NCBI RefSeq assembly: GCF_009931435.1
Contig: NZ_CP043414.1
Source of the DNA: Escherichia coli
GTDB lineage: Bacteria > Pseudomonadota > Gammaproteobacteria > Enterobacterales > Enterobacteriaceae
Length of the DNA stretch: 64,000 nt
Reading direction: 5' to 3' (one strand)
Positions 30,296-59,065 of the stretch are shown here, piece after piece. Under the pieces are notes generated by a model that saw only the letters and a program-made list of their open reading frames with translations, had not been told where the DNA came from and did not search any database. A program made the position numbers and the translations under genes. Positions within the stretch are counted from its first letter, which is position 1. Every line of letters starts with the position of its first letter.

Positions 30296-30401
30296 TGGTG
30301 GGTCGTGCAGGATGACTCACTTCGCTCGCCCTTCGGGCCGTCGCCGCAAGCGGCTCCGTTGTTTCGCTGCGCTCTACTCGAACCTGCAGCAGGTTCGAAT
30401 C
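30296..30401. repeat. tRNA-Lys-derived remnant
   Basis: Starts with the 3-prime-terminal 17 nt of tRNA-Lys then diverges; ends with an inverted T-arm-like segment gcaggttcgaatc. Confidence 0.6.
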
Positions 30402-30420
30402 TTTGAATATCGCAGATAGC

Positions 30421-30447
30421 AAAAAAGCGCCTTTAGGGCGCTTTTTT
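30421..30447 (-). terminator. Rho-independent terminator after lysQ
   Basis: Hairpin agcgcc-tttag-ggcgct flanked by A and T runs, immediately 3-prime of the last tRNA. Confidence 0.65.
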
Positions 30448-30451
30448 ACAT

Positions 30452-30527
30452 TGGTGGGTCGTGCAGGATTCGAACCTGCGACCAATTGATTAAAAGTCAA
30501 CTGCTCTACCAACTGAGCTAACGACCC
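30452..30527 (-). tRNA. lysQ: tRNA-Lys (UUU)
   Basis: 76-nt exact reverse complement of tRNA-Lys, anticodon loop CTTTTAA, CCA encoded. Confidence 0.95.
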
Positions 30528-30559
30528 CTTGCGGGATTATGCTGCTTTAATCATTCAGG

Positions 30560-30632
30560 ATGGTGGGTCGTGCAGGATGACTCGACTTCGTCTCGCCCTT
30601 CGGGCCGTTGCTGACGCAACGTTATCCTTCAC
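30560..30632. repeat. intergenic spacer repeat of the tRNA operon (tRNA-Lys 3-prime-end-like)
   Basis: tggtgggtcgtgcaggatgactcgacttcgtctcgcccttcgggccgttgctgacgcaacgttatccttcac; near-identical at 31276-31347. Confidence 0.7.
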
Positions 30633-30659
30633 ATTCTCTACCAGTAACCACCTTTAAAT

Positions 30660-30735
30660 TGGTGGGTCGTGCAGGATTCGAACCTGCGACCAATTGATTA
30701 AAAGTCAACTGCTCTACCAACTGAGCTAACGACCC
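30660..30735 (-). tRNA. lysZ: tRNA-Lys (UUU)
   Basis: 76-nt copy identical to lysQ. Confidence 0.95.
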
Positions 30736-30783
30736 ATACGGGTGTTACCTGAATGATTTCTACTCGGGACCAATCTTTAATAT

Positions 30784-30853
30784 TGGTGGATCGTGCAGGA
30801 TGACTCGCTTCGCTCGCCCTACGGGCCGTTGCTGGCGCAACGTTATCCTTCAC
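30784..30853. repeat. intergenic spacer repeat (diverged copy)
   Basis: tggtggatcgtgcaggatgactcgcttcgctcgccctacgggccgttgctggcgcaacgttatccttcac. Confidence 0.65.
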
Positions 30854-30881
30854 GCTTAACATCTGAGTTTGATGTTAAAAC

Positions 30882-30957
30882 TGGTGGGTCGTGCAGGATT
30901 CGAACCTGCGACCAATTGATTAAAAGTCAACTGCTCTACCAACTGAGCTAACGACCC
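30882..30957 (-). tRNA. lysY: tRNA-Lys (UUU)
   Basis: 76-nt copy identical to lysQ. Confidence 0.95.
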
Positions 30958-30960
30958 GAG

Positions 30961-31036
30961 TGGTGGGTGATGACGGGATCGAACCGCCGACCCCCTCCTT
31001 GTAAGGGAGGTGCTCTCCCAGCTGAGCTAATCACCC
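30961..31036 (-). tRNA. valZ: tRNA-Val (UAC)
   Basis: Reverse complement of tRNA-Val, anticodon loop CTTACAA, T-loop GGTTCGATCC. Confidence 0.93.
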
Positions 31037-31086
31037 GATACTGCGCTGGATACTACAAACTACTTCCACCGAACCCACCGCATTAG

Positions 31087-31162
31087 TGGTGGGTCGTGCA
31101 GGATTCGAACCTGCGACCAATTGATTAAAAGTCAACTGCTCTACCAACTGAGCTAACGACCC
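31087..31162 (-). tRNA. lysW: tRNA-Lys (UUU)
   Basis: 76-nt copy identical to lysQ. Confidence 0.95.
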
Positions 31163-31164
31163 GG

Positions 31165-31240
31165 TGGTGGGTGATGACGGGTTCGAACCGCCGACCCCCT
31201 CCTTGTAAGGGAGGTGCTCTCCCAGCTGAGCTAATCACCC
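31165..31240 (-). tRNA. valT: tRNA-Val (UAC), T-loop variant
   Basis: Same as valZ except one base (GGTTCGAACC instead of GGTTCGATCC). Confidence 0.9.
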
Positions 31241-31275
31241 GATACTACGCTGGATACTACAACTAACTAGGTTAG

Positions 31276-31347
31276 TGGTGGGTCGTGCAGGATGACTCGA
31301 CTTCGTCTCGCCCTTCGGGCCGTTGCTGACGCAACGTTATCCTTCAC
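31276..31347. repeat. intergenic spacer repeat of the tRNA operon
   Basis: Near-identical to 30560-30632. Confidence 0.7.
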
Positions 31348-31375
31348 GTTTTACTACCGCTTCCACCTTAGCGAT

Positions 31376-31451
31376 TGGTGGGTCGTGCAGGATTCGAACC
31401 TGCGACCAATTGATTAAAAGTCAACTGCTCTACCAACTGAGCTAACGACCC
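31376..31451 (-). tRNA. lysT: tRNA-Lys (UUU), first gene of operon
   Basis: 76-nt copy identical to lysQ. Confidence 0.95.
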
Positions 31452-31615: not shown

Positions 31616-32407
31616 TTACATCGCGTTCAGACGTTTTTGCGCCTGTTTTGCGCCATCAGTACCAGGGTATTTACTGATAACCTGCTGGTATACGGCTTTC
31701 GCTTTTGCGGTGTCACCTTTGTCCTGCATGATGACGCCGACTTTAAACATCGCATCTGCAGCCTTCGGTGACTTCGGATAGTTTTTCACTACCGAAGCAA
31801 AATAATACGCCGCATCATCTTTTTTACCCTTGTTGTAGTTTAACTGACCCAGCCAATAATTGGCGTTTGGCAGATAAGTTGAATCAGGGTAATTTTTGAT
31901 GAAATTCTGAAATGCCACCATTGCGTCATCCTGGCGGGATTTATCCTGCACCAGCGCAATAGCTGCATTGTAATCCGTGTTTGCATCACCGCTTTTCACC
32001 GGCGCGCCAGCATTCGCAGTACCAGCATCAGCTGTCGGCGTCGTTGATGCCGCCGCACCGCTTTGATCGCCGCTGGTTGATTGCGCCGCTGCACCACCGC
32101 TGCTGAGGCTATCGATCTGCAACAGGATCTGCTTTTGCCGCTCCACGACCTGATTCAGTTGATACTGATTTTCCTGAATCTGACCACGCAGGGAATCAAT
32201 ATCGGATTGATTATCAGAGAGTTGTTGCTGGAGTTGGGTTAAAAGCTGGCTGTGAGCATTAGAAATACGCTCAAGTTGAGTGACGCGGTCTTCGACCGAG
32301 CCTGAGCCGACACTACTGATTGGTGCCTGAGCAAAAGCGGCCCAGGGGGCCGCTATACCAACCAGTAACGACAGACTCAATAGTTGATGTCTGAAGTTAC
32401 TGCTCAT
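31616..32407 (-). CDS. cpoB: cell division coordinator CpoB (YbgF), TPR protein
   Basis: 263 aa ORF with signal peptide, Gln-rich coiled coil and TPR C-terminus. Confidence 0.93.
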   Translation of the reverse strand: MSSNFRHQLLSLSLLVGIAAPWAAFAQAPISSVGSGSVEDRVTQLERISNAHSQLLTQLQQQLSDNQSDIDSLRGQIQENQYQLNQVVERQKQILLQIDSLSSGGAAAQSTSGDQSGAAASTTPTADAGTANAGAPVKSGDANTDYNAAIALVQDKSRQDDAMVAFQNFIKNYPDSTYLPNANYWLGQLNYNKGKKDDAAYYFASVVKNYPKSPKAADAMFKVGVIMQDKGDTAKAKAVYQQVISKYPGTDGAKQAQKRLNAM

Positions 32408-32416
32408 GCAATTCTC

Positions 32417-32962
<546 letters not shown>

Positions 32963-34397: not shown

Positions 34398-35663
34398 TTA
34401 CGGTTTGAAGTCCAATGGCGCGTTTTTGAACACTTCATATACTGCCTGGCTTGGTGGTTTCGGGATCTTCGCAAGTTTAGCTGCTGCCAACGCAGCCTGA
34501 CAAAGTGCGGGATCGCCACCTTCAGGTTTGATATCCAGTAACATACCATCGGGTGCCAGTTTTATGCGCAGCGTACAGGTCTTGCCTGCATAGGACGATG
34601 CGTCATAGAACTTACTTTCGATAGCAGATTTAATCTGCCCGGCATAGTTATTGATATCGGCCCCTGATGCGCCATTGTTTTTAGTATTACCACTCCCGGC
34701 AGGCGAAGCATTGTTCCCTTTCGCCCCTCCCCCCGTTTTCGGTGCATTCTTACCAGAGCTTAGCTCACCGAAAATATCATCTGCCTCTGCGGCCGCTTTT
34801 GCTGCAGCGGCTTTTTCAGCTGCAGCTTTTGCCGCTGCCGCTTTTTTGTCTGCGGCGGCTTTTTCTGCCGCTGCTTTCTTATCAGCTGCTGCCTTTTCAG
34901 CAGCCGCTTTTTCTGCTGCTTTTTTGTCGGCTGCAGCTTTCTCTGCCGCTGCTTTCTTATCAGCTGCTGCCTTTTCAGCAGCCGCTTTCTTCTCAGCTTC
35001 TGCCTTGGTTTTTTCAGCAGCTTCAGTTGCCGCTTTTTTTCTTGCTTCAGCTGCAGCTGCTTCTGCCGCTTCCGCTTTCTTCTTCAGCGCCGCAGCGGCT
35101 GCTTCGGCTTTTTTCTGCGCTTCGGCTGCGGCTTTGGCTGCTTCTGCTTCTGCTTTTTTCTTCGCGTCTGCAGCCGCTTTCTTCGCTGCTTCTTCCGCAG
35201 CTTTTGCATCCGCTTCAGCCTTCGCTTTAGCATCTGCAGCCGCTTTCGCTGCCGCCTCTTCCGCTTGCTTCTGCTTTAACTCGGCCTGTTTTGCGGCTTC
35301 TTCAGCCTGCTTTTTCTGCTCCTGAGCCGCTAACCGCTCTTTCTCAAGTTGCTTCAGGCGTTCCTGTTCAGCCGCTTGTTTCTCACGCAGTTCTTCCGCA
35401 GCCTGCTGTTCCTTCATCTTGCGCTGCTCATCAGAACGCTTCGCGCTTGATTCCTGGCTTTGCATGCGTTTGTACTGCTCAACTACCGCACCTGAATCAA
35501 CCATTACAGCGTCGATGGACGAACCACCGCCGCCTCCGGCTGAAGCTTCTATATTCTCATCGAACGAACTCCAGATCAGCGCCGCAAATAAGATGACATG
35601 CAGCACTGCTGAAATAATTATCGCCCGCTTGAGCTTGTCGTTTTGTTCGGTTGCCTTTGACAC
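34398..35663 (-). CDS. tolA: Tol-Pal system protein TolA
   Basis: 421 aa ORF with long Ala/Lys/Glu-rich helical domain II, which generates the DNA-level repetitiveness at 34740-35300. Confidence 0.95.
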   Translation of the reverse strand: MSKATEQNDKLKRAIIISAVLHVILFAALIWSSFDENIEASAGGGGGSSIDAVMVDSGAVVEQYKRMQSQESSAKRSDEQRKMKEQQAAEELREKQAAEQERLKQLEKERLAAQEQKKQAEEAAKQAELKQKQAEEAAAKAAADAKAKAEADAKAAEEAAKKAAADAKKKAEAEAAKAAAEAQKKAEAAAAALKKKAEAAEAAAAEARKKAATEAAEKTKAEAEKKAAAEKAAADKKAAAEKAAADKKAAEKAAAEKAAADKKAAAEKAAADKKAAAAKAAAEKAAAAKAAAEADDIFGELSSGKNAPKTGGGAKGNNASPAGSGNTKNNGASGADINNYAGQIKSAIESKFYDASSYAGKTCTLRIKLAPDGMLLDIKPEGGDPALCQAALAAAKLAKIPKPPSQAVYEVFKNAPLDFKP

Positions 35664-38978: not shown

Positions 38979-40547
38979 TTAGCGTGCCGGCTGAGTAGTC
39001 GTGGAAGACTGCTCAAAGTGATAGCGACCGGTTTTCAGGCTGCTTGGGCCGAGGCGTGCAAACTTGAACATCAAGAACAATTCTGCCACCAGGAACAGGG
39101 TATACAGGCCACAAATCAGCACCATCGAGAAGATGAGGTCGCCTGCGGTCAGTGACGAGTTCGCTACAGCTGTCGGCAGCACTTCACCGATAGCCCAAGG
39201 TTGGCGACCATATTCAGCCACGAACCAGCCCGCTTCTACAGCAATCCACGGCAACGGAATACCGTACAATGCAGCGCGCAGCAGCCATTTTTTCTCGCCA
39301 ATACGGTTGCGGATGACACTCCAGAAAGAGAGCGCGATGATTGCCAGCAGCAGGAAGCCACACGCCACCATGATACGGAACGCGAAGTACAGCGGCGCTA
39401 CACGTGGAATGGAGTCTTTGGTTGCCTGTTGAATCTGCGCTTCAGTCGCATCCGCCACGTTTGGCGTGTAGCGTTTCAGCAACAGACCGTAACCGAGGTC
39501 TTTCTTCATGCTATTGAACTGGTCACGAACCGCCTGGTCAGTAGAACCAGAACGCAGTTGCTCGAGCAGAGAGTACGCCTTCATCCCGTTACGGATGCGT
39601 TCTTCATGCTGCACCATCAGCTCTTTCAGGCCGATAACCGGGGTATCCACGGAACGCGTTGCAATGATGCCCAGCGCGTAAGGGATCTGGATCGCAAATT
39701 TGTTCGTCTCCTCTTCCTGATCAGGAATGCCGAACAGAGTAAAGGCAGCAGGTGCAGGTTGCGTTTCCCACTCGGCTTCAATAGCAGCCAGTTTGGTTTT
39801 CTGCACGTCGCCCATTTCATAACCGGATTCATCACCCAGAACAATAACAGACAGAACGGCAGCCATACCGAAGCTGGCAGCGATAGCAAAGGAGCGTTTA
39901 GCAAAGGCGAAGTCACGACCTTTCAGCATATACCATGCGCTGATACCGAGGATGAACATCGCGCCAGTCACATAACCAGACGCTACCGTGTGAACGAATT
40001 TCACCTGAGCAACCGGGTTAAGCACCAGCTCGGAGAAGCTCACCATCTCCATACGCATAGTTTCAAAGTTGAAATCGGATGCGATTGGGTTTTGCATCCA
40101 GCCGTTCGCAACCAGAATCCACAGTGCGGACAGGTTTGAACCAAGCGCCACCAGCCAGGTGACACACATATGCTGAACTTTACCCAGACGATCCCAACCG
40201 AAGAAGAACAGACCTACAAAGGTGGATTCGAGGAAGAAGGCCATCAGACCTTCGATTGCCAGCGGCGCGCCGAAAATATCCCCTACATAGTGGGAATAGT
40301 AAGACCAGTTAGTCCCGAACTGGAACTCCATGGTCAGACCGGTTGCCACACCCAGAGCGAAGTTGATACCAAACAACTTGCCCCAGAACTTGGTCATATC
40401 TTTATAAATCTGTTTGCCGGAAAGGACGTAGACCGTTTCCATAATGGCCAGCAGGAACGCCATACCGAGCGTCAGTGGCACAAAAAGGAAGTGGTACATC
40501 GCGGTCAAGGCAAACTGTAAGCGCGACAGTTCGACTATATCTAACAT
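38979..40547 (-). CDS. cydA: cytochrome bd-I ubiquinol oxidase subunit I
   Basis: ORF 523 aa; second Met gives 522 aa. Confidence 0.95.
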
Positions 40548-40883
40548 CATGACTCCTTGCTCATCGCATGAAGACTCCGAGAGTGAACCCCGTTAGAAAG
40601 GGTCACACGCATGCCCCAATACAAAATTATTTGCTCGCCTCTATCGCTGCCTTTTCCTCAAAAGTGGAAAAGACAATGATAAAAAGTTACAAATATGTTA
40701 ATGAATAAACCAAATTGATCCCGTAATTATATTACGCCGCAAAATCCTTACAATAAACAGGTTTTTATTGAGCAAATTTGCATTTTTCGACAGTGATCAA
40801 TTTATAGCGAAATTGTCACGACCTCACCAATTTGATCTACGACAATTTATCGTGTTTTGCAGATTTTTTTCAAGAATTAAAAA

Positions 40884-40897
40884 TTGATTTATATCAA
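40884..40897. promoter_or_regulatory. FNR-type box in cydAB upstream region
   Basis: ttgatttatatcaa is an exact TTGAT-N4-ATCAA palindrome, about 340 bp upstream of cydA. Confidence 0.5.
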
Positions 40898-41272
40898 AAC
40901 CAATCAAATATGTTAATTATGTATAAACCATAGACCATTGGTAATTTTATTGTTAATTTATTGTGAAATATTTATGTAACACAATTATTACAATAAAAAG
41001 ACATAGATAAAAAACCAGTGTTTTATTTAACAGAATCGCCTTATCAACTTTTTATAATACCAATTGATTAGAGTAGCCAATTTGTTGCTATTTTACATAA
41101 CATATTTTTATCAAAGTTAATTGATTGTTGCCTTTATGAGCATCGCCGTAAGACCGCCATGTTATTGTTTCATTTGTAATAATCACCAATAAGTATCGAT
41201 GAGAGAGATATCGCTTAACAGAGGCGACTGTGTCTGCATGAACACAGGCAACTTTCGCCTGATAAACGAAAA

Positions 41273-42295
41273 ATGAGCGATTTTTGCAAGTTAGTTTTTC
41301 TATTGCCGGGTACGCTGAGCGCCTCGCTTGATTACAATGAGGTTGCTGCCATGGGTCTTGATAATATAGGTTCTGTTGTCAATCGCTTCTCTGGTTGGCC
41401 ATCAAATGATCCTCTAAAAACAGATAACGAATCAATGACATCACCCGTGACTGTGCAGGTAATAAAGTTGATTGCCGCCATCCTTGACCCACATCGGATA
41501 GTCGTTGGTATCGATACACTTTATACAACGCAGCGCAAAACATTTACCTCAGAGGGTCAACAACTCATTGAATCAGCATTGAAAACACTTAATGTGATGA
41601 ATTTAAATAACCTGGAAACAGATCGTGATGAGGAGGGTAACTATCTGGCTTTTGGATATAACGTTGACACTCCTGACAGAATAACCGTTTCTGCTTATAA
41701 TGAAAAAAAACCTTTCTGTTATGGCCAATGTCTTTTAATACAGGATGAAGAACCAGATTTATTTAACCTGGTAAAAATTAAAACCTTTGAAGCCAGGCAT
41801 AATTATGTTTCTAAATTGATGAGCGATCCGGAATTTATGTTTAAATTCAGTTATAGCGCCCAACAAAATAGATTAGAACCTCATCTTCTGGTTCCCACTT
41901 ATTTCCCTCTGAAAACAAACCAACCGGTTACGCTAGAGGATGTACTGATACTTTATCGTTTCTTTAAAATGAATGGCGATTTTAATATATTAACATCAGA
42001 TGAATACATGAGTATCATGACACCTCTGATGAAGTGTGAGCGTAGTATCCACGACCATAACAGGTATGTGACGGGCAAAGATGCTCTTCTTCTGGACAAT
42101 CCTCCGTCTGGTAACCAGATATATTTCCATATTTCCCCTGACGAATCAGCAACACTTGTCCTTTATTTTTCAGACAATAACCTTGAATCCTTCGTCTTTG
42201 AAAATGATATTCCGAGCCAGTATCGACATTTCAAAATGTTTACCAATTTAGCACTAGTTATTGATCAGTTAACCGACGCCAATCAAATACTTTAA
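41273..42295 (+). CDS. hypothetical protein, no recognisable family, low-GC gene
   Basis: 340-codon ORF in about 33 percent GC DNA; no Shine-Dalgarno at first ATG; alternative start ATG 41351 has GAGG 9 nt upstream. Confidence 0.6.
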   Translation: MSDFCKLVFLLPGTLSASLDYNEVAAMGLDNIGSVVNRFSGWPSNDPLKTDNESMTSPVTVQVIKLIAAILDPHRIVVGIDTLYTTQRKTFTSEGQQLIESALKTLNVMNLNNLETDRDEEGNYLAFGYNVDTPDRITVSAYNEKKPFCYGQCLLIQDEEPDLFNLVKIKTFEARHNYVSKLMSDPEFMFKFSYSAQQNRLEPHLLVPTYFPLKTNQPVTLEDVLILYRFFKMNGDFNILTSDEYMSIMTPLMKCERSIHDHNRYVTGKDALLLDNPPSGNQIYFHISPDESATLVLYFSDNNLESFVFENDIPSQYRHFKMFTNLALVIDQLTDANQIL

Positions 42296-42374
42296 TTTTC
42301 TATACAGCCCTGTGTAAAATATTGCTAAACAGTGCCCGGGGTTGATTTTTATTCCTCACGGTGATATTTAAATC

Positions 42375-42797
42375 ATGACACCATCTCAGCTCTCTTTTAA
42401 TACTCTTCCTGTCAATGCAACATGCACTTCAGAGATAACAGTAAACACACAAAAATTCTCTGACATCCTCTACTCAGTGGGGTATTCCCTAAAGGATCTG
42501 GCTTATCTGAGCAGATGTCTGGCATCATTACACCCGACACTCGCCAAAAACATTTATGAAACGGAAAATCTCAGCGATCAAAAATTACTTTATATAGATT
42601 GCCGTAGTACAAATGAAATCAAGATAAATATCTTTTTGGGTCAAAAAAGAGAAGAATTAATCGAAATTAGTTCTGATACAGTCATTTTTTCGATACTGTC
42701 TTCATTGATTGACTCAGTTATTTCTGAACATCGACATCAAATCCCCGTTAACGATTCAAATAATTCTGAACTATTTTATGAGGATTATACTGATTAA
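42375..42797 (+). CDS. hypothetical small acidic protein, no recognisable family
   Basis: 140 aa ORF, same strand, 79 bp downstream of the 340 aa ORF, AT-rich, acidic C-terminus (ELFYEDYTD). Confidence 0.55.
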   Translation: MTPSQLSFNTLPVNATCTSEITVNTQKFSDILYSVGYSLKDLAYLSRCLASLHPTLAKNIYETENLSDQKLLYIDCRSTNEIKINIFLGQKREELIEISSDTVIFSILSSLIDSVISEHRHQIPVNDSNNSELFYEDYTD

Positions 42798-43341
42798 ATC
42801 CACTCTGTACGAACCTGTCCTGCATTTATGCCAGAAGTATTAGAATCTTTGCTTAACGTTACTCATACAGTAGCACCTTCATGTGCCTCTCTTTTTTACG
42901 AAAAATCAAAAGAGCTAACAAAAGTCATTCTTCGCATGAATCATTAATTATTTGTTATTTTCAACATTATTTTTACATTAAGCATATATGAATTGCAGTG
43001 AAATTCGACTTAACTTTTATGAAATGCATTTACTCATGGCTAAAGCCACGTCACAAAAATGCAAATTAGAAGTTGATCACAATTATCTCAATCCATCAAA
43101 TCAAGTTAATTTTAAAAATTTAACATCCATGACATTAGTTGACATAACACGCTGAATTAAAATGAGAATTTAAAAAAACACTTTAAACAATCATTTCCCG
43201 AAAGACATTTTGAAAATAGATCAATTGCAACATTACGGTCAGATAAAGACACTCCTCTGATATTAAACCTGTGCCGTTATGAACGGCCATAAATACGACG
43301 TGTGTAACTTAATTTACTCTCTGTCTTACAAAGGATTACCC

Positions 43342-43791
43342 ATGAAGAAAGCAACACTTGTGATTGGCGTTATTGGCGCGGACTGCCATGCAGTAGGCAA
43401 TAAAGTTCTGGACCGCGTTTTTAGCAACCATGACTTCAGAGTCATTAATCTGGGCGTAATGGTCAGCCAGGACGAATATATTGATGCTGCCATTGAAACT
43501 GGCGCTGACGCGATTGTCGTCTCCTCTATCTATGGGCATGGCGATATCGATTGTCTGGGCATGCGCGAACGCTGCATCGAGCGTGGGCTGGGTAACATCC
43601 TGCTCTATGTGGGCGGTAACCTGGTGGTCGGAAAACATGACTTCGCTGACGTGGAAACCAAGTTCAAAGAGATGGGATTTGATCGCGTCTTTTCCCCAAG
43701 TCATGACTTAGAAGATGTTTGTCAGCTGATGGCCCACGATATCAACCAACGTCATGACGTTGATACTCGCATTCTTGAAGAGGCAATCTGA
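43342..43791 (+). CDS. glutamate mutase sigma subunit (B12-binding subunit)
   Basis: ORF 43279-43791; start placed at ATG 43342 after AAAGGA; [18 protein letters not shown] resembles the clostridial MutS/GlmS cobalamin-binding motif. Confidence 0.88.
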
Positions 43792-47887: not shown

Positions 47888-49258
47888 ATGGCTCGTTCTT
47901 TTAAAGTCTTATCGCCAACGGCAATCCTCGGGTATGGATTCCCGGAAGAGAGCTTCCGCAAAGCGATGGCAGAATCGCCCGATCTGATCGCCGTTGATGC
48001 AGGCTCTTCCGATCCTGGCCCCCACTACCTCGGGGCGGGCAAACCGTTTACCGATCGCGCAGGGGTCAAGCGCGATCTGCGCTATATGATCACCGCAGGC
48101 GTGCAAAATAATATACCGGTGGTGATCGGAACGGCCGGCGGTTCTGGTGCCGCTCCACACCTGGAGTGGTGCCGAGAAATAATTCATGAGATTGCCCGGG
48201 AAGAGCACCTCGCGTTCTCGATGGCGCTGATCCCGGCAGACGTTGACAAAGCCATCGTCCACCAGGCGCTGGATAACGGCAAAATCACAGCGCTGGATTT
48301 TGTCCCGCCGTTAACCCACGACGCGATTGACGAAAGTACGTATATCGTCGCGCAAATGGGCATCGAACCCTTCCAGCAGGCGCTGAAAGAAGGCGCGCAA
48401 GTGGTGCTGGGCGGGCGCGCTTACGACCCGGCCTGCTTTGCTGCGCTACCGATCATGCAAGGCTTTGATGAAGGTCTGGCGCTGCATTGTGGGAAAATCC
48501 TTGAATGCGCGGCAATCGCCGCAACGCCCGGCTCAGGCTCTGACTGTGCGATGGGCATCATTGATGACAACGGCTTTACGCTGAAGACATTTAATCCGAA
48601 GCGTAAATTTACCGAAACGTCAGCGGCTGCACACACACTGTATGAGAAATCCGATCCCTACTTCCTGCCAGGACCTGGCGGCGTGTTGAACCTGAAAGGC
48701 TGCACATTTAAAGCGGTCAATGACGGCGAAGTGTACGTCAGCGGTTCTAAGCATGAAGAAACGCCGTATGCCCTGAAACTGGAAGGTGCGCGGCGGGTGG
48801 GCTTCCGCTGTCTGACCATCGCAGGAACGCGCGACCCGATCATGATCGCCGGGATCGATAAAATCATCGATGAAGTCAAAACCAGCGTTTCGCGTAACCT
48901 GTCGCTCGACGATGACAGCATTCGCATCAATTTCCACCTGTACGGCAAAAACGGGGTGATGGGCGACCATGAACCGATGCAAACTGCCGGGCATGAGCTG
49001 GGGATTGTCCTTGATGTAGTTGCACCGACCCAGGATATTGCCAATAGCGTTTGCTCGCTGGTGCGCTCTACCATGCTGCACTACGGCTATGAAAACCGCA
49101 TCGCTACCGCAGGCAACCTGGCGTTCCCGTTCTCCCCTTCTGATATCCAGGGCGGGCCGGTATACGAATTTTCCATATATCACCTGATTGAAGCCAACGA
49201 CGCTCTGCGTTTTGATTTCCATATTGAACAGGTGACGCCAGAAGGAGTTCAGGCATGA
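47888..49258 (+). CDS. conserved protein of unknown function, tentatively DUF1446 / AtuA-like
   Basis: 456 aa ORF 3 nt after the lyase gene; family assignment from memory of an LIAVDAGSSDPGP-type N-terminal pattern. Confidence 0.7.
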   Translation: MARSFKVLSPTAILGYGFPEESFRKAMAESPDLIAVDAGSSDPGPHYLGAGKPFTDRAGVKRDLRYMITAGVQNNIPVVIGTAGGSGAAPHLEWCREIIHEIAREEHLAFSMALIPADVDKAIVHQALDNGKITALDFVPPLTHDAIDESTYIVAQMGIEPFQQALKEGAQVVLGGRAYDPACFAALPIMQGFDEGLALHCGKILECAAIAATPGSGSDCAMGIIDDNGFTLKTFNPKRKFTETSAAAHTLYEKSDPYFLPGPGGVLNLKGCTFKAVNDGEVYVSGSKHEETPYALKLEGARRVGFRCLTIAGTRDPIMIAGIDKIIDEVKTSVSRNLSLDDDSIRINFHLYGKNGVMGDHEPMQTAGHELGIVLDVVAPTQDIANSVCSLVRSTMLHYGYENRIATAGNLAFPFSPSDIQGGPVYEFSIYHLIEANDALRFDFHIEQVTPEGVQA

Positions 49259-49572
49259 AACAGTCAATTGTCTCACTGGCGCAAGTCATTCGTTCGAAAA
49301 ATGCCGGACCTTACGAACTGGTTTTAGATATTTTATTTAAAACGAAAGAAAACTATGAGCGAGTAAAATCATCAGGGCAATTAACCCCAGAACTGATTGC
49401 GCGCTTATATCATGTTGAACCTGACTTTATTCATCGTATTGTCTGGTTTGATCCTTCTAACGCAGTAAAAATTGTCATGCCACGAGATATTATCTCCGGG
49501 AATGTAGGTGACAATGATGTCTATGGCGCACAGCAACATGCACCTTTATTAAATATGAGTTTCGATTTGTAA
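49255..49572 (+). CDS. small conserved protein, tentatively DUF4387-like partner
   Basis: 105 aa ORF overlapping the preceding gene by 4 nt (ATGA coupling). Confidence 0.7.
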   Translation: MKQSIVSLAQVIRSKNAGPYELVLDILFKTKENYERVKSSGQLTPELIARLYHVEPDFIHRIVWFDPSNAVKIVMPRDIISGNVGDNDVYGAQQHAPLLNMSFDL

Positions 49573-49658
49573 AAATCCGAACACTTTTAGCCAACTGACA
49601 TCCCGTCACTTATTGCAGCTCAACACTTCAGCTATTTGTAAGGTTGTTATAGCAGGTA

Positions 49659-49684
49659 GATGCCTGAATCTCTATTCAGGCATC
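49659..49684 (+). other. intra-operon stem-loop (possible attenuator or processing site)
   Basis: 10-bp stem gatgcctgaa / ttcaggcatc with 6-nt loop; no clean U-tract. Confidence 0.3.
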
Positions 49685-49732
49685 CACTTCTCCTGATTCT
49701 GATTTATCGCCGTGCACCTGATGGAGGAAAAA

Positions 49733-51013
49733 ATGAAGAAAATAAGTTTAACCACGATGATTCTTTTGGCGCTGGTACTTGGAATGATTATCGGCGTAGT
49801 GCTCAATAACACTGCTTCACCGGAAACAGCAAAACTCTATGCGCAAGAAATATCGATATTCACGACGATTTTCTTACGACTGATAAAAATGATTATCGCT
49901 CCGTTAGTGGTCTCTACCCTGGTGGTAGGTATTGCTAAAATGGGCGATGCCAAAGCCCTTGGTCGTATTTTTTCTAAAACACTCTTTTTATTTATTTGCG
50001 CCTCATTGCTGTCAATTGCCTTAGGCTTGATAACGGTAAATTTCTTCATGCCAGGCACAGGAATTAATTTTGTTGCACACGGTGCCGAAACCACCGGAGT
50101 GGTCGCGTCAGAACCCTTTACACTAAAAGTATTTATTTCGCATGCTTTCCCCACCAGCATTGTCGATGCCATGGCGCACAATGAAATTTTGCAAATCGTG
50201 GTGTTCTCAATTTTCCTCGGCTGTAGCCTGACGGCGATTGGTGAGAAAGGCAGCGCCATCGTTCACGCCTTAGATTCGCTGGCACATGCCATGTTAAAGC
50301 TCACTGGCTACGTCATGCTCTTCGCTCCCCTGACCGTATTCGCCGCTATTTCAGCATTGATTGCTGAACGAGGACTGGCAGTTATGGTGAGCGCCGGGAT
50401 CTTTATGGGTGAATTTTATTTCACCATGTTATTACTTTGGGTGCTGCTTATCGGTCTGGCCATCGTTTATGTCGGCCCCTGCATCAGACGCCTGACCCGC
50501 GCCCTTTCAGAACCCGCCCTGCTGGCATTTACCACATCCAGTTCTGAAGCTGCTTTTCCGGGAACGCTTGAAAAACTGGAGCAATTTGGCGTTTCCCCCA
50601 AAATTGCCAGCTTTGTCTTACCCATTGGCTACTCATTTAATCTCGTTGGATCAATGGCCTACTGCTCCTTCGCCACAGTTTTCATCGCCCAGGCCTGCAA
50701 TATCCATTTATCCATCGGTGAGCAAATCACCATGCTGTTGATCCTGATGTTGACCTCGAAAGGAATGGCTGGCGTACCACGCGCCTCAATGGTGGTTATC
50801 GCCGCCACGCTCAACCAGTTCAATATTCCGGAAGCGGGGCTGATCTTGCTGATGGGCGTTGATCCGTTCCTTGATATGGGGCGTTCCGCGACAAACGTCA
50901 TGAGCAACGCAATGGGCGCTGCGATGGTGAGTCGGTGGGAAGGCGAACATTTCGGCGAGGGCTGTCGGGGTAAAGCATTAAAACCCAATGAATCGAACGT
51001 TGCTCTGCCCTGA
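49733..51013 (+). CDS. dicarboxylate/amino acid:cation symporter (DAACS, GltP/DctA family)
   Basis: ORF 49712-51013; start placed at ATG 49733 after GGAGG; polytopic membrane protein. Confidence 0.85.
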   Translation: MKKISLTTMILLALVLGMIIGVVLNNTASPETAKLYAQEISIFTTIFLRLIKMIIAPLVVSTLVVGIAKMGDAKALGRIFSKTLFLFICASLLSIALGLITVNFFMPGTGINFVAHGAETTGVVASEPFTLKVFISHAFPTSIVDAMAHNEILQIVVFSIFLGCSLTAIGEKGSAIVHALDSLAHAMLKLTGYVMLFAPLTVFAAISALIAERGLAVMVSAGIFMGEFYFTMLLLWVLLIGLAIVYVGPCIRRLTRALSEPALLAFTTSSSEAAFPGTLEKLEQFGVSPKIASFVLPIGYSFNLVGSMAYCSFATVFIAQACNIHLSIGEQITMLLILMLTSKGMAGVPRASMVVIAATLNQFNIPEAGLILLMGVDPFLDMGRSATNVMSNAMGAAMVSRWEGEHFGEGCRGKALKPNESNVALP

Positions 51014-51120
51014 GGGGGATCTTAAGCAATCAGAAGCCAATGACTACGCATTTTTATAAGCCGGATCATGAAGTTAGACGGCAATTAAGTAACACTAACG
51101 TTTAAGGTGAAAAGTGAAAT

Positions 51121-52773
51121 ATGTCCAAACCATTTATCTGGCAAGAACCGTTTCTACAAAATAAAGACGGTACAGAATATACATTAATTAGCGATCAACA
51201 TATTACAGTAACGGAATTAGACGGCGAAGAAGTAATAAAAATCGCTCCTGAAGCATTAACGCTGCTTGCCCGGCAGGCATTTTATGAAGCCTCTTTTTTC
51301 TTACGTTCCGCTCATTTGCAACAGGTCGCCAGCATTCTTAACGATCCGCAGGCCAGCAGTAATGATAAATACGTTGCGTTGCAGTTATTACGTAATGCTG
51401 AAGTCTCAGCAAAAGGGGTATTACCCAACTGTCAGGATACCGGCACCGCAACTATTGTTGCCAGTAAAGGGCAACAGATATGGACGGGAGGTAACGACGC
51501 TGAAGCCTTAAGCAAAGGCATTTACAGTACTTTCCAGGAAAATAATCTGCGCTTTTCACAAAATGCGCCGCTGGATATGTATACCGAAGTCAATACGCAA
51601 ACCAATCTTCCGGCGCAGATTGATATCAGCGCTGTCGCTGGTAATGAGTACCATTTTCTCTGTGTTAATAAAGGGGGCGGCTCCGCCAATAAAGCCGCAC
51701 TTTATCAGGAAACCAAATCCTTATTGCAACCAGAAAAACTGACCGCATTTTTAATCGACAAAATGAAATCGTTGGGCACGGCCGCCTGCCCGCCCTACCA
51801 CATCGCCTTTGTCGTCGGAGGGCTTTCAGCCGATCAAACCTTAAAAGTTGCCAAGCTGGCCTCTACGAAATATTACGACAATTTGCCCACCAGCGGAAAC
51901 GAGCAGGGACAAGCATTCCGTGATATTGAGCTGGAAAAAGCGTTGCTCGAGGCCAGTCAGCAATTTGGTATTGGTGCGCAATTTGGGGGTAAATATTTCG
52001 CTCATGATATTCGCGTCATTCGTCTGCCGCGTCACGGTGGCTCTTGCCCGATAGCTATGGCGCTCTCCTGTTCTGCCGATCGCAATATCAAAGCAAAAAT
52101 TAACAAGCATGGTATCTGGCTGGAAAAACTCGAACACAATCCGGGGCAATATATTCCAGCCTCACTGCGGGAAGAAAATCACGCGCAACATGTACAGCTG
52201 GATCTAAACCGTCCGTTGCGTGACGTGATGCAGGATCTCGCCAGATTACCGGTAGGTACCCGCGTGTCGTTAAGTGGTCCCATCGTAGTGGCGCGCGATA
52301 TCGCCCACGCAAAAATAAAAGCGCGGCTGGATAGCGGCGAATCGATGCCGGATTACCTGAAGCATCATATTGTCTATTACGCTGGCCCGGCGAAAACACC
52401 GGAGAACATGGCCTGCGGTTCACTGGGTCCAACCACGGGCGGTCGAATGGACGGTTATGTCGAAACCTTCCAGGCGGCTGGCGGCAGTCTGGTAATGTTA
52501 TCGAAAGGTAACCGCAGCCAGCAGGTCACCGATGCCTGTCACAAACATGCAGGCTTCAATCTGGGAAGTATTGGCGGTGCAGCTGCGTTACTGGCGCAAG
52601 AATATGTCAAAAGTCTGCGTTGCCTGGAATACCCGGAGCTGGGTATGGAGGCGGTGTGGATGATGGAAGTGGAAAATCTGCCCGCATTCATCCTGGTTGA
52701 TGATAAAGGCAATAATTTCTTTAGCCAGTTTGAGCAGCAACACCGCTGCGCCAGTTGCCCTGCGGGACATTAA
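51121..52773 (+). CDS. fumD: class I (Fe-S) fumarate hydratase family protein, mesaconase candidate
   Basis: 550 aa ORF, FumA/FumB length and fold; symbol from memory of the O157:H7 cluster. Confidence 0.8.
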
Positions 52774-52782
52774 GGAAAATGA

Positions 52783-53385
52783 ATGGAAGCGCGAATTTCA
52801 ACTGAACGGCATGTGCAGCGCCAACAGAAATTGAAGGAACAGGTCGATACGCGCGTCGCGGCGGCGATAGAGAAAAAAGGGATCTTGATTGTTTTCACCG
52901 GCAACGGCAAAGGGAAATCCACTGCCGCGTTTGGTACTGTGACGCGCGCGGTGGGTCATGGCAAAACGGTGGGGGTTGCGCAGTACATCAAGGGGCAATG
53001 GGACAACGGCGAATACAACCTTCTCCAGCCGCTGGGGGTTGAGTTTCATATTATGGGAACCGGTTTTACCTGGGAGACTCAGAACCGGCAAGCGGATATC
53101 GACGCGGCGAAAGAGGTCTGGTCGGAAAGCAAACGGATGCTGGCTGACAAGCGTTACGACTTAGTGGTGCTTGATGAGCTGACCTATATGCTGGCTTACC
53201 ATTATCTGGACACCGAAGAAGTGATCACTTCTCTGCAAAACCGCCCGGCACAACAAAGTGTCATTGTCACCGGACGCAGTTGCCACAGTCAGATATTAAA
53301 AATGGCGGATACGGTCAGCGAAATCCGCCCCGTCAAACATGCTTTTGATAACGGCATTCAGGCGCAGCCGGGTATCGACTGGTAA
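52783..53385 (+). CDS. cob(I)alamin adenosyltransferase, CobA/BtuR family paralog
   Basis: 200 aa ORF with P-loop IVFTGNGKGKSTAAFG; close to remembered K-12 BtuR. Confidence 0.85.
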   Translation: MEARISTERHVQRQQKLKEQVDTRVAAAIEKKGILIVFTGNGKGKSTAAFGTVTRAVGHGKTVGVAQYIKGQWDNGEYNLLQPLGVEFHIMGTGFTWETQNRQADIDAAKEVWSESKRMLADKRYDLVVLDELTYMLAYHYLDTEEVITSLQNRPAQQSVIVTGRSCHSQILKMADTVSEIRPVKHAFDNGIQAQPGIDW

Positions 53386-53418
53386 TAACTGCGCCTGGCA
53401 TCCAGCCAGGCGCAGGTT

Positions 53419-54324
53419 TTACATCTCCTGCGGTACGACCGATTTCGCCAGCAACCATTCACGAAATTGCTGCAAGTGCGGCGAGTCAGACTTCTCTTCC
53501 TGCCACGTCATAATAAAACGATTACCGGTACGAATAGGCACATCACAGGGAATCACCATATCGCCACTATCCAAATCATGTTGAATAGCGAACCGTGGTA
53601 ACAGCGCCACGCCGAGATTAGAGCGCACGGCGGCAATCAGCATTGAAAGCAAATCGAAACGTGGTCCGTTATTGACCAGCGGACTGCTAACGCCAGATAA
53701 AGCAAACCACTCTTCCCAGCCAGTAATACGGGTGCTTTGATGCAGAAGTGGTAACTCAGTAAGCAGTTCTGCCACTGACAGTTTTTGATCGGACATTGCA
53801 AGCAAACTGCCGCTGCATACCGGCAAAATCTCCTCTTCAAAGAGATATTCTACTTCCGCCCAGGGCGCGCAAAAATTTTCGCGCATAATGACAGCATCGT
53901 ACTCCCGATTAAGAAAATCGCCGTTATTAGCTAAAGAATGAATATTAACAATAATATCGGGATGTAACTTTGTGAATTCATGTAAATTTGGGATTAACCA
54001 GTGGGTACTAAACGTAGGATTAACGGCAAGTTCAATAACCTGAACCGTAGGCTGCCAGGTCATAATCGTATTGGTATCGCGCTCCAATTTATTTAATGTT
54101 TCTTTTACTATCCCCAGGTAATACTTCCCTGCATCATTAAGAAAAATGCGTTTTTTAGAGTGTGAAAATAACGGAGTATGTAAAAATTCCTCCAACGCAC
54201 TTACTTGTCTGAATACTGCACTTTGGGTTAACGCTAACTCCTCTGCCGCTCTGGTATAACTTTCATGACGTGCGACGACCTCAAAAGTCACCAGCAGCTC
54301 CGTTTTAGGTATTTTTCCTCGCAT
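53419..54324 (-). CDS. LysR-family transcriptional regulator
   Basis: 301 aa ORF, N-terminal HTH (ESYTRAAEELALTQSAVFRQVSALEEFL). Confidence 0.85.
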   Translation of the reverse strand: MRGKIPKTELLVTFEVVARHESYTRAAEELALTQSAVFRQVSALEEFLHTPLFSHSKKRIFLNDAGKYYLGIVKETLNKLERDTNTIMTWQPTVQVIELAVNPTFSTHWLIPNLHEFTKLHPDIIVNIHSLANNGDFLNREYDAVIMRENFCAPWAEVEYLFEEEILPVCSGSLLAMSDQKLSVAELLTELPLLHQSTRITGWEEWFALSGVSSPLVNNGPRFDLLSMLIAAVRSNLGVALLPRFAIQHDLDSGDMVIPCDVPIRTGNRFIMTWQEEKSDSPHLQQFREWLLAKSVVPQEM

Positions 54325-54480
54325 AATGCCGTCCCTTAAAAATAGTTTAAACCATCAAAAATACATTACTTATTACGAAGTAATGGTAACCAAAGCAGCA
54401 ATAAATAATTTATAAGAATCATGATTAACATTTATAACCCAGTAAGCCTGGCGTGACAATTATCTTAATCAGATAATAAT

Positions 54481-54509
54481 AATCCGAAAAGCACAGCACC
54501 TTTCGGATT
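54481..54509 (-). terminator. hairpin downstream of the HAL-like gene (weak terminator candidate)
   Basis: Stem atccgaaa / tttcggat with 11-nt loop, followed on the minus strand by ATTATTATTAT. Confidence 0.35.
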
Positions 54510-54594
54510 ATCAGGAATTACATTAAGTGAAAATTATTAAATTGATATCATTTATCATATCTGTGGATATAATGATAAACAATCAACATAGATT

Positions 54595-59064: not shown

Positions 59065-59065
59065 A

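Follow-up and report, generated by a model that had tools for sequence, protein, structure and literature searches.

A probable composite control region shared by the divergent cydABX and glutamate mutase operons of Escherichia coli, with an Escherichia-restricted islet of two orphan genes

In a 64-kb stretch of Escherichia coli DNA (64,000 nucleotides, contig NZ_CP043414.1; hereafter the window), cydA and glmS, the first gene of the glutamate mutase-methylaspartate operon, are transcribed away from each other across 2794 bp of AT-rich DNA. The operon opens a glutamate-to-citramalate cluster that, according to Kronen & Berg 2015 (PMC4682846), about a quarter of the surveyed E. coli genomes carry, as do 90.6% of O157:H7 strains and many opportunistic enterobacteria. 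The article describes the cluster genes and the FumD enzyme and states that expression of the cluster in O157:H7 was not achieved; its available part does not mention the promoter, the dyad, the upstream orphan ORFs or the adjacency to cydA. What, then, is the interval between the two genes: a single block of horizontally acquired DNA silenced by H-NS, as the original prediction suggested, or an assembly of parts with separate histories? We put the probability at roughly 70% that it is a long divergent control region, serving cydABX on the minus strand and the glutamate mutase-methylaspartate operon on the plus strand, with an Escherichia-restricted islet of two orphan genes in its unconserved middle, and that its parts work as proposed below. 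Coordinates are collected in Table 1.

Table 1. Features of the cydA-glmS region and of the linked regulator gene (window coordinates)
Feature	Position	Strand	Basis or remark
cydA, cytochrome bd-I subunit I	38979..40550	-	ORF list; RefSeq annotation of matching E. coli loci
AT-rich tract	40548..43341		entire cydA-to-glmS start-codon interval; 34.9% GC
Core cydAB control region (leader, promoters, FNR sites)	40551..~40925	-	orthology
Second FNR-like site TTGATCTACGACAA (2 mismatches)	40832..40845		53 bp nearer cydA than the exact box
Exact FNR box TTGATTTATATCAA	40884..40897		sole exact TTGAT-N4-ATCAA in 64 kb
Distal cyd upstream segment, Escherichia-specific	40926..41186		sequence comparison
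Lineage-restricted islet holding ORF1 and ORF2	~41187..42935	+	homology breakpoints
ORF1, 314 aa, orphan	41351..42295	+	RefSeq-style start; longest ORF from 41273
ORF2, 140 aa, orphan	42375..42797	+	less stable than ORF1
glm operon control region	42936..43341	+	77-80% identical in E. whittamii, E. albertii
Conserved 15-bp dyad TTGAAAATAGATCAA (TTGA-N7-TCAA, T-N11-A type)	43210..43224		candidate activator site, centre ~-43
Predicted -35 hexamer TTGCAA	43225..43230	+	TTG in 54/54 loci; directly abuts dyad
Predicted weak -10 hexamer GACACT	43248..43253	+	17 bp from -35 in 54/54 loci
Small hairpin GCCGTT-ATG-AACGGC, predicted leader	43273..43287	+	minimum-free-energy structure
glmS (methylaspartate mutase S), operon's first gene	43342..43791	+	RefSeq annotation of matching loci
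Cluster LysR-type regulator (GcvA-like), candidate dyad binder	53419..54324	-	NCBIfam, PDB matches

Composition, the cyd side and the age of the adjacency

The window as a whole has 50.3% GC, and when all 2794-bp windows were scanned, the lowest value (34.8%) belonged to the one starting at position 40651, practically the tract itself. The tract lies about 4.5 standard deviations under the mean of such windows (mean 50.2%, sd 3.4%), and the claim that some 2.8 kb of AT-rich DNA is present here is well founded. The low GC runs through every sub-part (cydA-ORF1 spacer, 32.3%; ORF1, 37.6%; ORF2, 34.8%; ORF2-glmS spacer, 31.8%), as against 53.1% for cydAB and 52.5% for the glm operon on the flanks. 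The RefSeq start of cydA is the second ATG, at position 40547.

Of 5426 complete E. coli genomes, 5425 match the cyd-proximal part of the tract. Its alignment with K-12 has 79% identity and ends at about position 40922; alignments with Klebsiella, Citrobacter, Salmonella and Pseudescherichia show 75-85% identity and end between 40897 and 40944. In K-12, the cydAB region is a multi-promoter region (P1-P5) under the control of FNR, ArcA and H-NS. The second FNR-like site in Table 1, which aligns with TTGTTCTCGATCAA in K-12, is presumably the second FNR site over the P1 start (after Cotter et al. 1997). The exact FNR box was correctly predicted: it is unique in the window and is found 338-346 bp from the cydA start in all 25 loci compared (Escherichia, Klebsiella, Citrobacter, Salmonella and Pseudescherichia); its half-sites are the same in every locus, and only the 4-bp spacer varies. 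We regard the box as real because of this conservation and not because of the match count, since 0.11 exact matches are expected by chance per window and 11 of 100 shuffles contained at least one. Its K-12 orthologue, TTGATATTTATCAA, lies 341.5 bp upstream of cydA. For cydAB, Myers et al. (2013; PMC3688515) listed a single FNR site, at -53.5, together with a ChIP-seq peak of FNR, and we infer that the box corresponds to this site. The box is most likely the orthologue of the site that FNR uses in K-12 to repress cydAB under full anaerobiosis. ArcA, whose anti-repression of H-NS at K-12 cydAB has been reported (PMC3798270), activates in K-12 mainly by displacing H-NS. A scan of the window with an ArcA-type consensus gave three matches with at most three mismatches, all within the tract. 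Shuffled windows do as well by chance, with a mean of 1.79 matches and at least three in 26 of 100 shuffles. AT-rich DNA favors matches to this consensus. The cyd part, including its FNR box, is textbook material and already known.

Divergent cydA and glmS neighbors were found in 20 loci from Escherichia, Klebsiella, Citrobacter, Salmonella arizonae and Pseudescherichia. In those loci the spacer between the two genes measures 844-1574 bp with 32-40% GC, and the three spacers for which ORFs were listed contain none as long as 70 aa. Because the divergent pair recurs across at least five genera, the adjacency is old; and because the DNA upstream of glmS has 24-41% GC in every genus examined, its AT-richness belongs to the operon's control region as such and does not signal that this strain acquired it recently. 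When four genus-level representatives were aligned, 50-100% of the columns were invariant across most of the cyd-proximal ~350 bp (28% in one 40-column block), and mostly 0-20% in the mid-spacer. Cross-genus conservation is restricted to the cyd-proximal ~400 bp and to a block containing the dyad and the -35 hexamer.

The islet and its two orphan genes

Beyond the core cyd region, the distal segment has counterparts of 88-90% identity in E. whittamii, in Escherichia sp. E1V33 and in those E. coli genomes with a TPR gene at the site; it is missing from K-12 and from other genera. Homology to the TPR-gene-carrying genomes ends at 41186. Homology to E. whittamii and Escherichia sp. E1V33 stops at the same position and restarts at 42936, so the intervening islet is absent from these two. 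Its carriers are glm-positive E. coli, E. albertii and Escherichia sp. MOD1-EC7003, with none in other genera, and it is 85-93% identical to O157 compared with ~98% for the flanks. A search of the islet for mobility genes, a tRNA site or convincing flanking repeats found none. Since one genome (L007) carries the ORF1 family beside cydA without the glm operon, the islet and the operon are separable. As judged from sequence comparison, the islet is the sole lineage-restricted part of the tract. Other genera have some 650 bp of AT-rich, unconserved spacer where E. coli and E. albertii have ORF1 and ORF2, and of the whole tract these two genes alone behave as foreign or lineage-specific DNA.

Two ORFs in this region had been described as unknown, and so they are: both are annotated as "hypothetical protein" in RefSeq E. 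coli, and neither was matched to a described family or fold in searches of Pfam, NCBIfam, PHROGs, PADLOC and PDB sequences. In collections of 5.8 billion clusters and 1.84 billion representatives, relatives of ORF1 are confined to Escherichia; those of ORF2 are confined to Escherichia and Shigella. No relatives of either were found in phage or true plasmid records. This narrow range would also suit frames that are open merely by chance within a non-coding, AT-rich spacer, as would the very low AlphaFold confidence (mean pLDDT of 43 for ORF1, not usable, and 39.5 for ORF2, too poor for structure searching), the truncated, frameshifted or internally deleted variants of ORF2 in several lineages (the E. 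albertii form has 90 aa), and the lack of any scored promoter-like site upstream of ORF1. However, the ORF1 frame has remained open at identical length, with zero indels across 945 nt at 76% nucleotide identity, in DNA of 35-38% GC. Its non-synonymous changes are significantly below the neutral level (dN/dS of 0.37 vs O157 and 0.38 vs E. albertii; p = 1e-4 and 2e-7), and ORF2 follows the same trend more weakly (dN/dS 0.43, p = 0.014). Chance frames are therefore a most unlikely explanation, and ORF1 and ORF2 appear to be real genes that evolve fast under purifying selection (dN/dS ~0.4). GC3 is low in both (34% in ORF1).

These limits bear on the proposal that the whole 2.8 kb is one horizontally acquired, H-NS-silenced block that arrived with the mutase island. 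The uniformly low GC fits such a block, and so do the presence of the full tract in just 1134 of 5426 complete E. coli genomes, a number equal to that of genomes with the glm island, and the lack of detectable expression in O157 (PMC4682846). A single arrival is nevertheless hard to reconcile with the near-universal occurrence of the cyd-proximal 375 bp in E. coli and its presence in other genera, with the distal segment in genomes that lack the island, with the AT-rich cydA-glmS spacer common to five genera, or with the ORF1 family beside cydA in L007; we consider it very unlikely. Of the claim of horizontal acquisition, what stands concerns positions ~41187-42935, where the distribution is restricted and patchy. 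No such pattern is seen for 40551-40925 or for the promoter block upstream of glmS (43183-43229), which is conserved wherever the glm operon occurs. The tract thus appears to be a composite and not a single acquired islet.

The predicted glm promoter and its candidate operator

The spacer between ORF2 and glmS (42798-43341) is 544 bp long, not about 480 bp as first given. That it contains the promoter of the mutase operon had been presumed, and this agrees with a footprint present in 54 of 55 Enterobacterales loci: a dyad TTGA-N7-TCAA, followed by TTGnnn, 17 bp and nAnAnT. The motif ATCAATTG is missing from only one of the 55 loci (L049). Within the dyad, the right arm ATCAA is invariant (54/54 loci), and the left arm has T2 in 54/54, G3 in 47/54 and A4 in 53/54; the dyad forms a sharp island of conservation in an otherwise unconserved spacer. 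The -10 hexamer keeps A2 in 54, A4 in 53 and T6 in 54 of the 54 loci, whereas the top base at each position between the two hexamers reaches only 0.33-0.78. Spacing within 16-18 bp, retained key bases and a varying spacer are as expected of a sigma-70 promoter, and a simple single-sequence scan left it unscored because the -10 is weak. Transcription would start near position 43260, driven by a sigma-70 promoter whose -35 is good but whose -10 is poor, a combination that implies the need for an activator, probably at the abutting dyad. Another hexamer, TATTAA (43261-43266), is conserved in Enterobacteriaceae and could be the true -10, in which case the dyad centre shifts to about -56. A search for further copies of the dyad before the regulator gene and the downstream sub-operons found none.

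Which activator would bind there? The dyad resembles a class II site for FNR or another CRP/FNR-family protein, through which anaerobiosis would switch on the operon directly: its right arm is an invariant ATCAA, its left arm is TTGA[A/T]-like, and its centre at about -43 almost coincides with the -41.5 typical of such sites, while the promoter that it abuts has a weak -10. The enzyme itself is said to have been reported by Kato and Asano in 1997 from enterobacteria grown with limited oxygen. FumD, moreover, carries an oxygen-labile Fe-S cluster, according to Kronen & Berg 2015 (PMC4682846). The FNR-type pentamers, however, are 5 bp apart instead of 4 in all 54 loci, whichever of the three sequence groups they belong to. 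One added base pair normally abolishes FNR/CRP binding. The dyad does not have the TTGA-N6-TCAA spacing of FNR/CRP-type sites. The best FNR-like match in the spacer, TTGATCACAATTAT (43073-43086), is correctly spaced, but it has two mismatches, is conserved within Escherichia only and sits ~185 bp ahead of the predicted start; the original prediction was right that only weak FNR-like half-sites occur here, and the spacer has no exact box. Direct control by FNR or another CRP/FNR-family protein at the dyad is thus rather unlikely.

We read the footprint instead as an activator-dependent sigma-70 promoter whose operator suits the LysR-type regulator of the cluster better than FNR. The dyad contains TGA-N7-TCA inside TTGAAAATAGATCAA, an interrupted T-N11-A dyad of the kind bound by LysR-type proteins. 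The best NCBIfam match of the regulator is GcvA (221 bits, under the 288-bit cut-off), as is its best PDB match (8y6u, E = 7e-43). In Rhodoferax and Aromatoleum, glmS has a homologue of the regulator gene (42-45% identity) as its divergent neighbor, and in five Yersinia loci a homologue (62-65% identity) is located upstream of glmS, so that the linkage of this regulator to glmS spans Enterobacterales and Betaproteobacteria. In E. coli, the regulator gene is 10 kb from glmS and convergent, not divergent. The best dyad of LysR-type regulators is usually near -65; neither a site near -65 nor an autoregulated divergent promoter was found here. The best candidate activator at the dyad would be this GcvA-like protein, responding to a metabolite of the pathway.

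A structured leader is another conceivable control element, because the enzyme requires adenosylcobalamin and a long spacer precedes glmS; the predicted leader even contains a small hairpin (Table 1). In other genera, a hairpin of differing sequence was seen by eye at a similar place. Against a cobalamin riboswitch or other structured leader, the scan of the whole window with Rfam covariance models gave no cis-regulatory match at gathering score upstream of glmS (the matches in the window being tRNAs, RtT, naRNA4 and the cpoB thermometer only), and nothing credible appeared at E<=10 in 40500-43450, cobalamin (RF00174) included, just as had been stated for a B12-riboswitch core. The predicted glm leader is only ~80 nt long. 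Its folding z-score is -1.06, and RNAalifold on sequences from 13 genera and species gave -0.7 kcal/mol and three pairs, with no consensus fold or covariation. Control by such an RNA element is extremely improbable, and glm control would proceed without a riboswitch.

Possible silencing, possible shared control and known systems

With 34.9% GC against 50.3%, the tract shows the AT content far above average, over several hundred base pairs, that is typical of xenogeneic targets of H-NS, and its silencing by H-NS is plausible. ORF1 and ORF2 would be the most likely putative target. For the cyd promoter of K-12, silencing by H-NS is documented (Govantes et al. 2000, cited in PMC3798270). In O157:H7 ATCC 700728, methylaspartase activity was undetectable under any condition tried (PMC4682846), and putative silencing by H-NS is consistent with this undetected expression. 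The AT-rich DNA upstream would probably keep the glm promoter silent under laboratory conditions. A search for literature treating H-NS together with methylaspartate found none.

A bolder reading is that cydABX and the glm operon are kept divergent in at least five enterobacterial genera by one shared oxygen-responsive ArcA/FNR/H-NS switch, with the LysR-type regulator adding substrate specificity and with ORF1 and ORF2 inserted into, or arisen in, the silenced spacer. If so, an ArcA/FNR/H-NS complex on the spacer would set the state of both promoters, and the high-affinity oxidase would be co-expressed with the oxygen-sensitive B12/Fe-S glutamate pathway in microaerobic gut niches. We consider this unlikely. 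The picture of the locus is corrected: the cyd-glm adjacency is ancient and the lineage-specific part is a 1.75-kb orphan-gene islet only. The tract is mostly ordinary, yet it reveals a predicted promoter and operator of the mutase operon that are conserved and had not been described. A placed predicted promoter, a 15-bp candidate operator, a named candidate activator and a defined AT-rich spacer provide handles on the problem of cluster expression.

Like H-NS-silenced AT-rich islands, the tract sustains ~35% GC over more than 1 kb, its two ORFs have low GC3, the islet has a narrow taxonomic range, and the neighboring operon lacks detectable laboratory expression (PMC4682846). It differs from them in that only the middle ~1.75 kb is lineage-restricted and that mobility genes, a tRNA site, convincing flanking repeats and phage or true plasmid relatives were not found. 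The glm side resembles the T-N11-A promoters of the LysR type, in particular those of the GcvA/AmpR/DsdC subgroup, in having a 15-bp interrupted dyad beside a promoter with a weak -10 and a cognate LysR-family gene that accompanies the operon in distant taxa; the dyad here, however, is near -43 whereas theirs is at about -65, and the regulator, a predicted binder here, is not encoded divergently from the operon in Enterobacteriaceae. With the K-12 cydAB control region, the tract shares the orthologous proximal ~375 bp, in which the exact FNR palindrome is equally distant from cydA and is followed, 53 bp downstream, by a second FNR-like site. Past ~40925 the two sequences are unrelated, and the upstream neighbor of cydA is mngB, at 846 bp, in K-12 but the ORF1-ORF2 islet followed by the glm operon here. 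Closest of all is the methylaspartate cluster of O157:H7, with the same order glmS-glmL-glmE-mal-DUF1446-DUF4387-gltP-fumD-cobO-LysR regulator and nucleotide identities of 92% across the tract and ~98% across the operon, while the island of the present strain adds hut genes past the regulator gene.

Composition and layout of the cydA-glmS interval

The divergent genes cydA and glmS are separated by a long, divergent control region that is AT-rich and ancient and encloses a small islet of orphan genes specific to Escherichia. On the minus strand, the window carries pal-tolBARQ-ybgC-ybgE-cydXBA, a chromosome segment of E. coli type. The plus strand beyond cydA carries two hypothetical ORFs followed by the methylaspartate (glutamate mutase) cluster in the order glmS-glmL-glmE-mal-DUF1446-DUF4387-gltP-fumD-cobO, and then a convergent LysR-type regulator gene and, in this strain, hut genes as well. 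At the gene level this island had been described before (Kronen & Berg, 2015, PMC4682846). The AT-rich tract of the original prediction (40548-43341) proved to be the exact interval from the cydA start codon to the glmS start codon, and its composition was confirmed: it has 34.9% GC, compared with 50.3% for the window and about 53% in each flanking operon. This makes it the window's AT-richest 2.8 kb; segments of the same length have a mean GC about 4.5 sd higher.

Shorter AT-rich spots were seen at 11201-11700, 54101-54500, and 62301-62700 (28-38% GC in 500-bp windows), and one of them is the spacer upstream of the LysR-type regulator gene. The Rfam elements at gathering score were a cluster of seven tRNA genes with four RtT elements set among them, the thermometer of CpoB/ybgF, and naRNA4. 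A segment of tolA (34900-35199) was 79% identical to that of O157, the comparison E. coli, while the adjoining DNA was 97-99% identical; because annotated tolA lengths vary among strains, this is probably a repeat-length polymorphism.

Features and homology boundaries in the window, with conservation among the aligned loci where counted
Feature	Coordinates	Description
tRNA/RtT cluster, CpoB/ybgF thermometer and naRNA4	30296-31451, 32378-32516; 6174-6244	Rfam; ordinary E. coli features
End of homology, K-12 (mngRAB at the site)	near 40922	
End of homology, E. coli with TPR gene at the site, E. whittamii, Escherichia sp. E1V33	41186	
Resumption of homology, E. whittamii	42936	
ORF1	41351-42295	314 aa; annotated hypothetical protein
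ORF2	42375-42797	140 aa; annotated hypothetical protein
Dyad TTGA-N7-TCAA	43210-43224	15 bp
Right arm of dyad, ATCAA	43220-43224	54/54 loci
TTG of adjoining hexamer (TTGCAA in the window)	43225-43230	54/54 loci
Spacer of exactly 17 bp	43231-43247	length in 54/54 loci; sequence unconserved
Hexamer nAnAnT (GACACT in the window)	43248-43253	A2 54/54, A4 53/54, T6 54/54
Leader hairpin GCCGTT/AACGGC	43273-43287	example from the window
Leader hairpin CAGCG/CGCTG		example from K. spallanzanii
Leader hairpin GCGCA/TGCGC		example from Buttiauxella

A probably old arrangement and a lineage-restricted islet

The original prediction saw in the whole tract a composition typical of H-NS-silenced, horizontally acquired DNA. 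In a megablast comparison with 5426 complete E. coli genomes, the cyd-proximal end was matched in 5425, whereas the full-length tract was matched in 1134, a set identical to the carriers of the glm island. A scan of one genome per species yielded 80 loci with a close GlmS. Twenty of them have a divergent cydA upstream of glmS and belong to Escherichia, four Klebsiella species, many Citrobacter, Salmonella enterica subsp. arizonae, and Pseudescherichia. The spacers in these 20 loci measure 844-1574 bp (mostly about 1215 bp) with 32-40% GC. Among genus-level representatives, conservation is confined to about 400 bp by cydA and a sharp island some 110-150 bp ahead of glmS, and the middle of about 650 bp is AT-rich and unconserved. 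ORF1 and ORF2 are found inside the spacer only in E. coli, E. albertii, and a single other lineage of Escherichia; the spacers of E. whittamii and S. arizonae hold no ORF of at least 70 aa wholly inside, and in that of C. amalonaticus two short ORFs (92 and 101 aa) lie on the minus strand. In our reading, the divergent cydA-glm pair is an old Enterobacteriaceae arrangement, the sucD-cydA interval has been remodelled many times since, and about 41187-42935 is the sole lineage-restricted part of the tract. Horizontal acquisition is not supported for the tract as a whole, given the near-universal cyd-proximal end and the old synteny; the original observation was right and its interpretation half right.

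The sucD-cydA interval is a hot spot for gene-content change. An Escherichia contig from Logan (L007, SRR11658232) carries at 7197-10780 cydA, an ORF1 homologue (63% identity), an unknown ORF of 258 aa, and sucD, and it lacks the glm operon; islet and operon can therefore occur apart, and ORF1 can persist beside cydA alone. A third architecture, consisting of a tetratricopeptide-repeat (TPR) protein gene with or without mngAB, was seen in two E. coli loci (NZ_HG994851.1 and NZ_CP107140.1). Upstream of cydA these loci carry over 1.3 kb without annotation, and they have 40551-41186 in common with the window. Past the LysR-type regulator, the island contains hutU, a HAL/PAL-type ammonia-lyase gene, a cytosine permease gene, and others up to the end of the window. 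The stretch 49000-64000, which includes the regulator, is covered to at least 80% in only 143 of the 5426 complete genomes, and in O157 sucD comes soon after the regulator.

The two unknown ORFs are present as originally described. They have zero matches in Pfam, NCBIfam, PHROGs, PADLOC, and PDB sequences, and purifying selection points to both being genes. The islet is 85-93% identical between the window and O157, compared with about 98% in the flanks. ORF1 keeps exactly 945 nt in E. albertii, without an indel and at 76% nucleotide identity. Its dN/dS is 0.37-0.38, with fewer non-synonymous changes than under neutrality (p down to 2e-7), and that of ORF2 is 0.43 (p = 0.014), although ORF2 is truncated or frameshifted in some lineages. 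GC3 is 34% in ORF1 and 31% in ORF2 as against 53-62% in neighbouring genes. Judged by these substitution patterns, ORF1 and ORF2 are real, fast-evolving orphan genes. A word-indexed search of 5.8 billion clusters and a full HMMER search of 1.84 billion representatives returned relatives or fragments from Escherichia/Shigella only. By tblastn, no match was obtained among phages, and only three "plasmid" records matched; they measure 0.73-4.9 Mb, are classed as non-mobilizable, and include two of chromosome size. Two PLSDB entries of 4.9 Mb each with this chromosomal locus (NZ_CP141089.1 and NZ_CP134663.1) look like chromosomes filed as plasmids, and a 4.9-kb contig (L011, JAIJJM010000209.1, "MAG: Collinsella sp.") with ORF1, ORF2, and a GlmS 100% identical to the window is evidently a mis-binned E. 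coli contig.

AlphaFold models of the two proteins were unusable (mean pLDDT of 43 for ORF1 and 39.5 for ORF2). Paralogy between ORF2 and the C-terminus of ORF1, which have a similar predicted beta-beta-beta-alpha layout, was rejected at an hhalign probability of 0.4%, and a 55-aa ORF at 42988-43155 was discarded as a gene because its start codon is lost in E. albertii. Around the islet, a search for mobility signatures gave weak repeats only, unconvincing in AT-rich DNA. One example is a 26-nt direct repeat of 85% identity, with one copy at the edge of the conserved cyd core (CCAATCAAATATGTTAATTATGTATA, 40900-40925) and its partner at the ORF1 3' end (CCAATCAAATACTTTAATTTTCTATA, 42279-42304), which may be due to chance in DNA of this composition.

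The cyd side and the case for H-NS

An exact FNR-type palindrome (TTGATTTATATCAA) lies at 40884-40897, as had been stated, and is the sole exact one in 64 kb. The proximal 375 bp of the tract, palindrome included, align with the K-12 cydAB regulatory region, in which the counterpart TTGATATTTATCAA is centred 341.5 bp upstream of the cydA ATG, and a second FNR-like site is located in the aligned region 53 bp nearer cydA. All 25 loci compared, from five genera, have an exact palindrome at a distance of 338-346 bp from the start of cydA, with invariant half-sites and a variable 4-bp spacer (TTAT, TTAA, TAAA, CTAA, or TTAC); by this conservation it is a clean phylogenetic footprint. cydAB is listed among the direct targets of FNR repression, with a site at -53.5 (Myers et al., 2013, PMC3688515). 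Park et al. (2013, PMC3798270) mapped three ArcA regions upstream of cydA and summarised earlier work in which ArcA activates cydAB mainly via disruption of H-NS binding. The cyd part is known, textbook biology; its AT-richness is that of a large regulatory region and no sign of foreign origin.

The composition of the tract, the H-NS/ArcA interplay at K-12 cyd, and the silence of the pathway in O157:H7 together make a plausible case for H-NS, and within the tract it is ORF1/ORF2 that come closest to what is usual for an H-NS target. As reported by Kronen & Berg (2015, PMC4682846), O157:H7 ATCC 700728 showed no detectable methylaspartase activity or glutamate-dependent growth in any condition tried. 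Scans with the published high-affinity H-NS motif and the ArcA consensus gave few matches, not beyond chance, and literature searches on Sakai/EDL933 locus tags and on H-NS with methylaspartate turned up neither expression nor ChIP data for the locus. A 42-bp block (ATTAATTATTTGTTATTTTCAACATTATTTTTACATTAAGCA, 42936-42977), some 300 bp ahead of the predicted start of glm, is conserved in E. coli, E. whittamii, and E. albertii and holds one of the window's three ArcA-consensus-like matches.

Predicted promoter and operator of the mutase operon

The 600 bp upstream of glmS, or the part available on the contig, had 24-41% GC in 53 of 53 Enterobacterales loci, compared with 46-59% for the operon, and this held with or without cydA as a neighbour. 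The low GC here is a feature of the control region of the operon rather than a sign that this strain acquired the DNA recently. The spacer upstream of glmS, originally put at about 480 bp, measures 544 bp. Within it, ATCAATTG was found in a conserved context in 54 of 55 loci, and these 54 were aligned on the motif for the conservation counts (Table). We read the footprint as a predicted sigma-70 promoter whose -35 is good and whose -10 is poor. Transcription of glm would then begin close to 43260, with a leader about 80 nt long, and TATTAA at 43261-43266, conserved in Enterobacteriaceae, could be an alternative -10.

The absence of a B12 riboswitch upstream of the mutase genes was borne out by covariance-model scanning, since Rfam gave nothing relevant for the whole window at gathering score or for the tract at E<=10. 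RNAalifold on 13 leaders and single-sequence folding revealed no conserved or unusually stable structure and no covariation, and a riboswitch or structured glm leader was rejected for want of an Rfam family, consensus fold, or covariation. By eye, a short hairpin or palindrome of differing sequence is seen just downstream of the predicted promoter in most genera; it was not recovered by RNAalifold and could be a 5' stabilising stem-loop or chance.

Immediately upstream of the -35-like hexamer is the dyad TTGAAAATAGATCAA, centred near -43. It resembles an FNR site, which accounts for the "weak FNR-like half-sites" of the original prediction, yet 5 bp, and not 4, separate its pentamers in every sequence group, Yersinia, Morganella, and Hafnia among them. 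It therefore departs from the spacing that defines FNR/CRP sites, and such a site is the less likely reading. The cluster regulator (53419-54324, minus strand) is GcvA-like, and because glmS is linked to a homologue of it in Yersinia and has one divergently beside it in Rhodoferax and Aromatoleum, we propose it with moderate confidence as a candidate activator that would bind the dyad. Our confidence is only moderate because the position is atypical for a primary LysR-type site, a second copy of the motif was not detected, and TATTAA offers an alternative -10. In front of the regulator gene, gltP, or fumD, no second TTGA-N7-TCAA was found; a match with one mismatch lies at 54572. The betaproteobacterial divergent spacers contained no motif similar to the dyad.

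The conserved cydA-glmS synteny, the delimitation of the islet, the evidence for ORF1 and ORF2 as real genes, and the strongly footprinted predicted promoter and operator of the mutase operon, with a candidate regulator, are new. Their main value is that the unexplained silence of the glutamate mutase pathway becomes experimentally approachable. In its form the dyad, T-N11-A, matches the typical boxes of LysR-type regulators.
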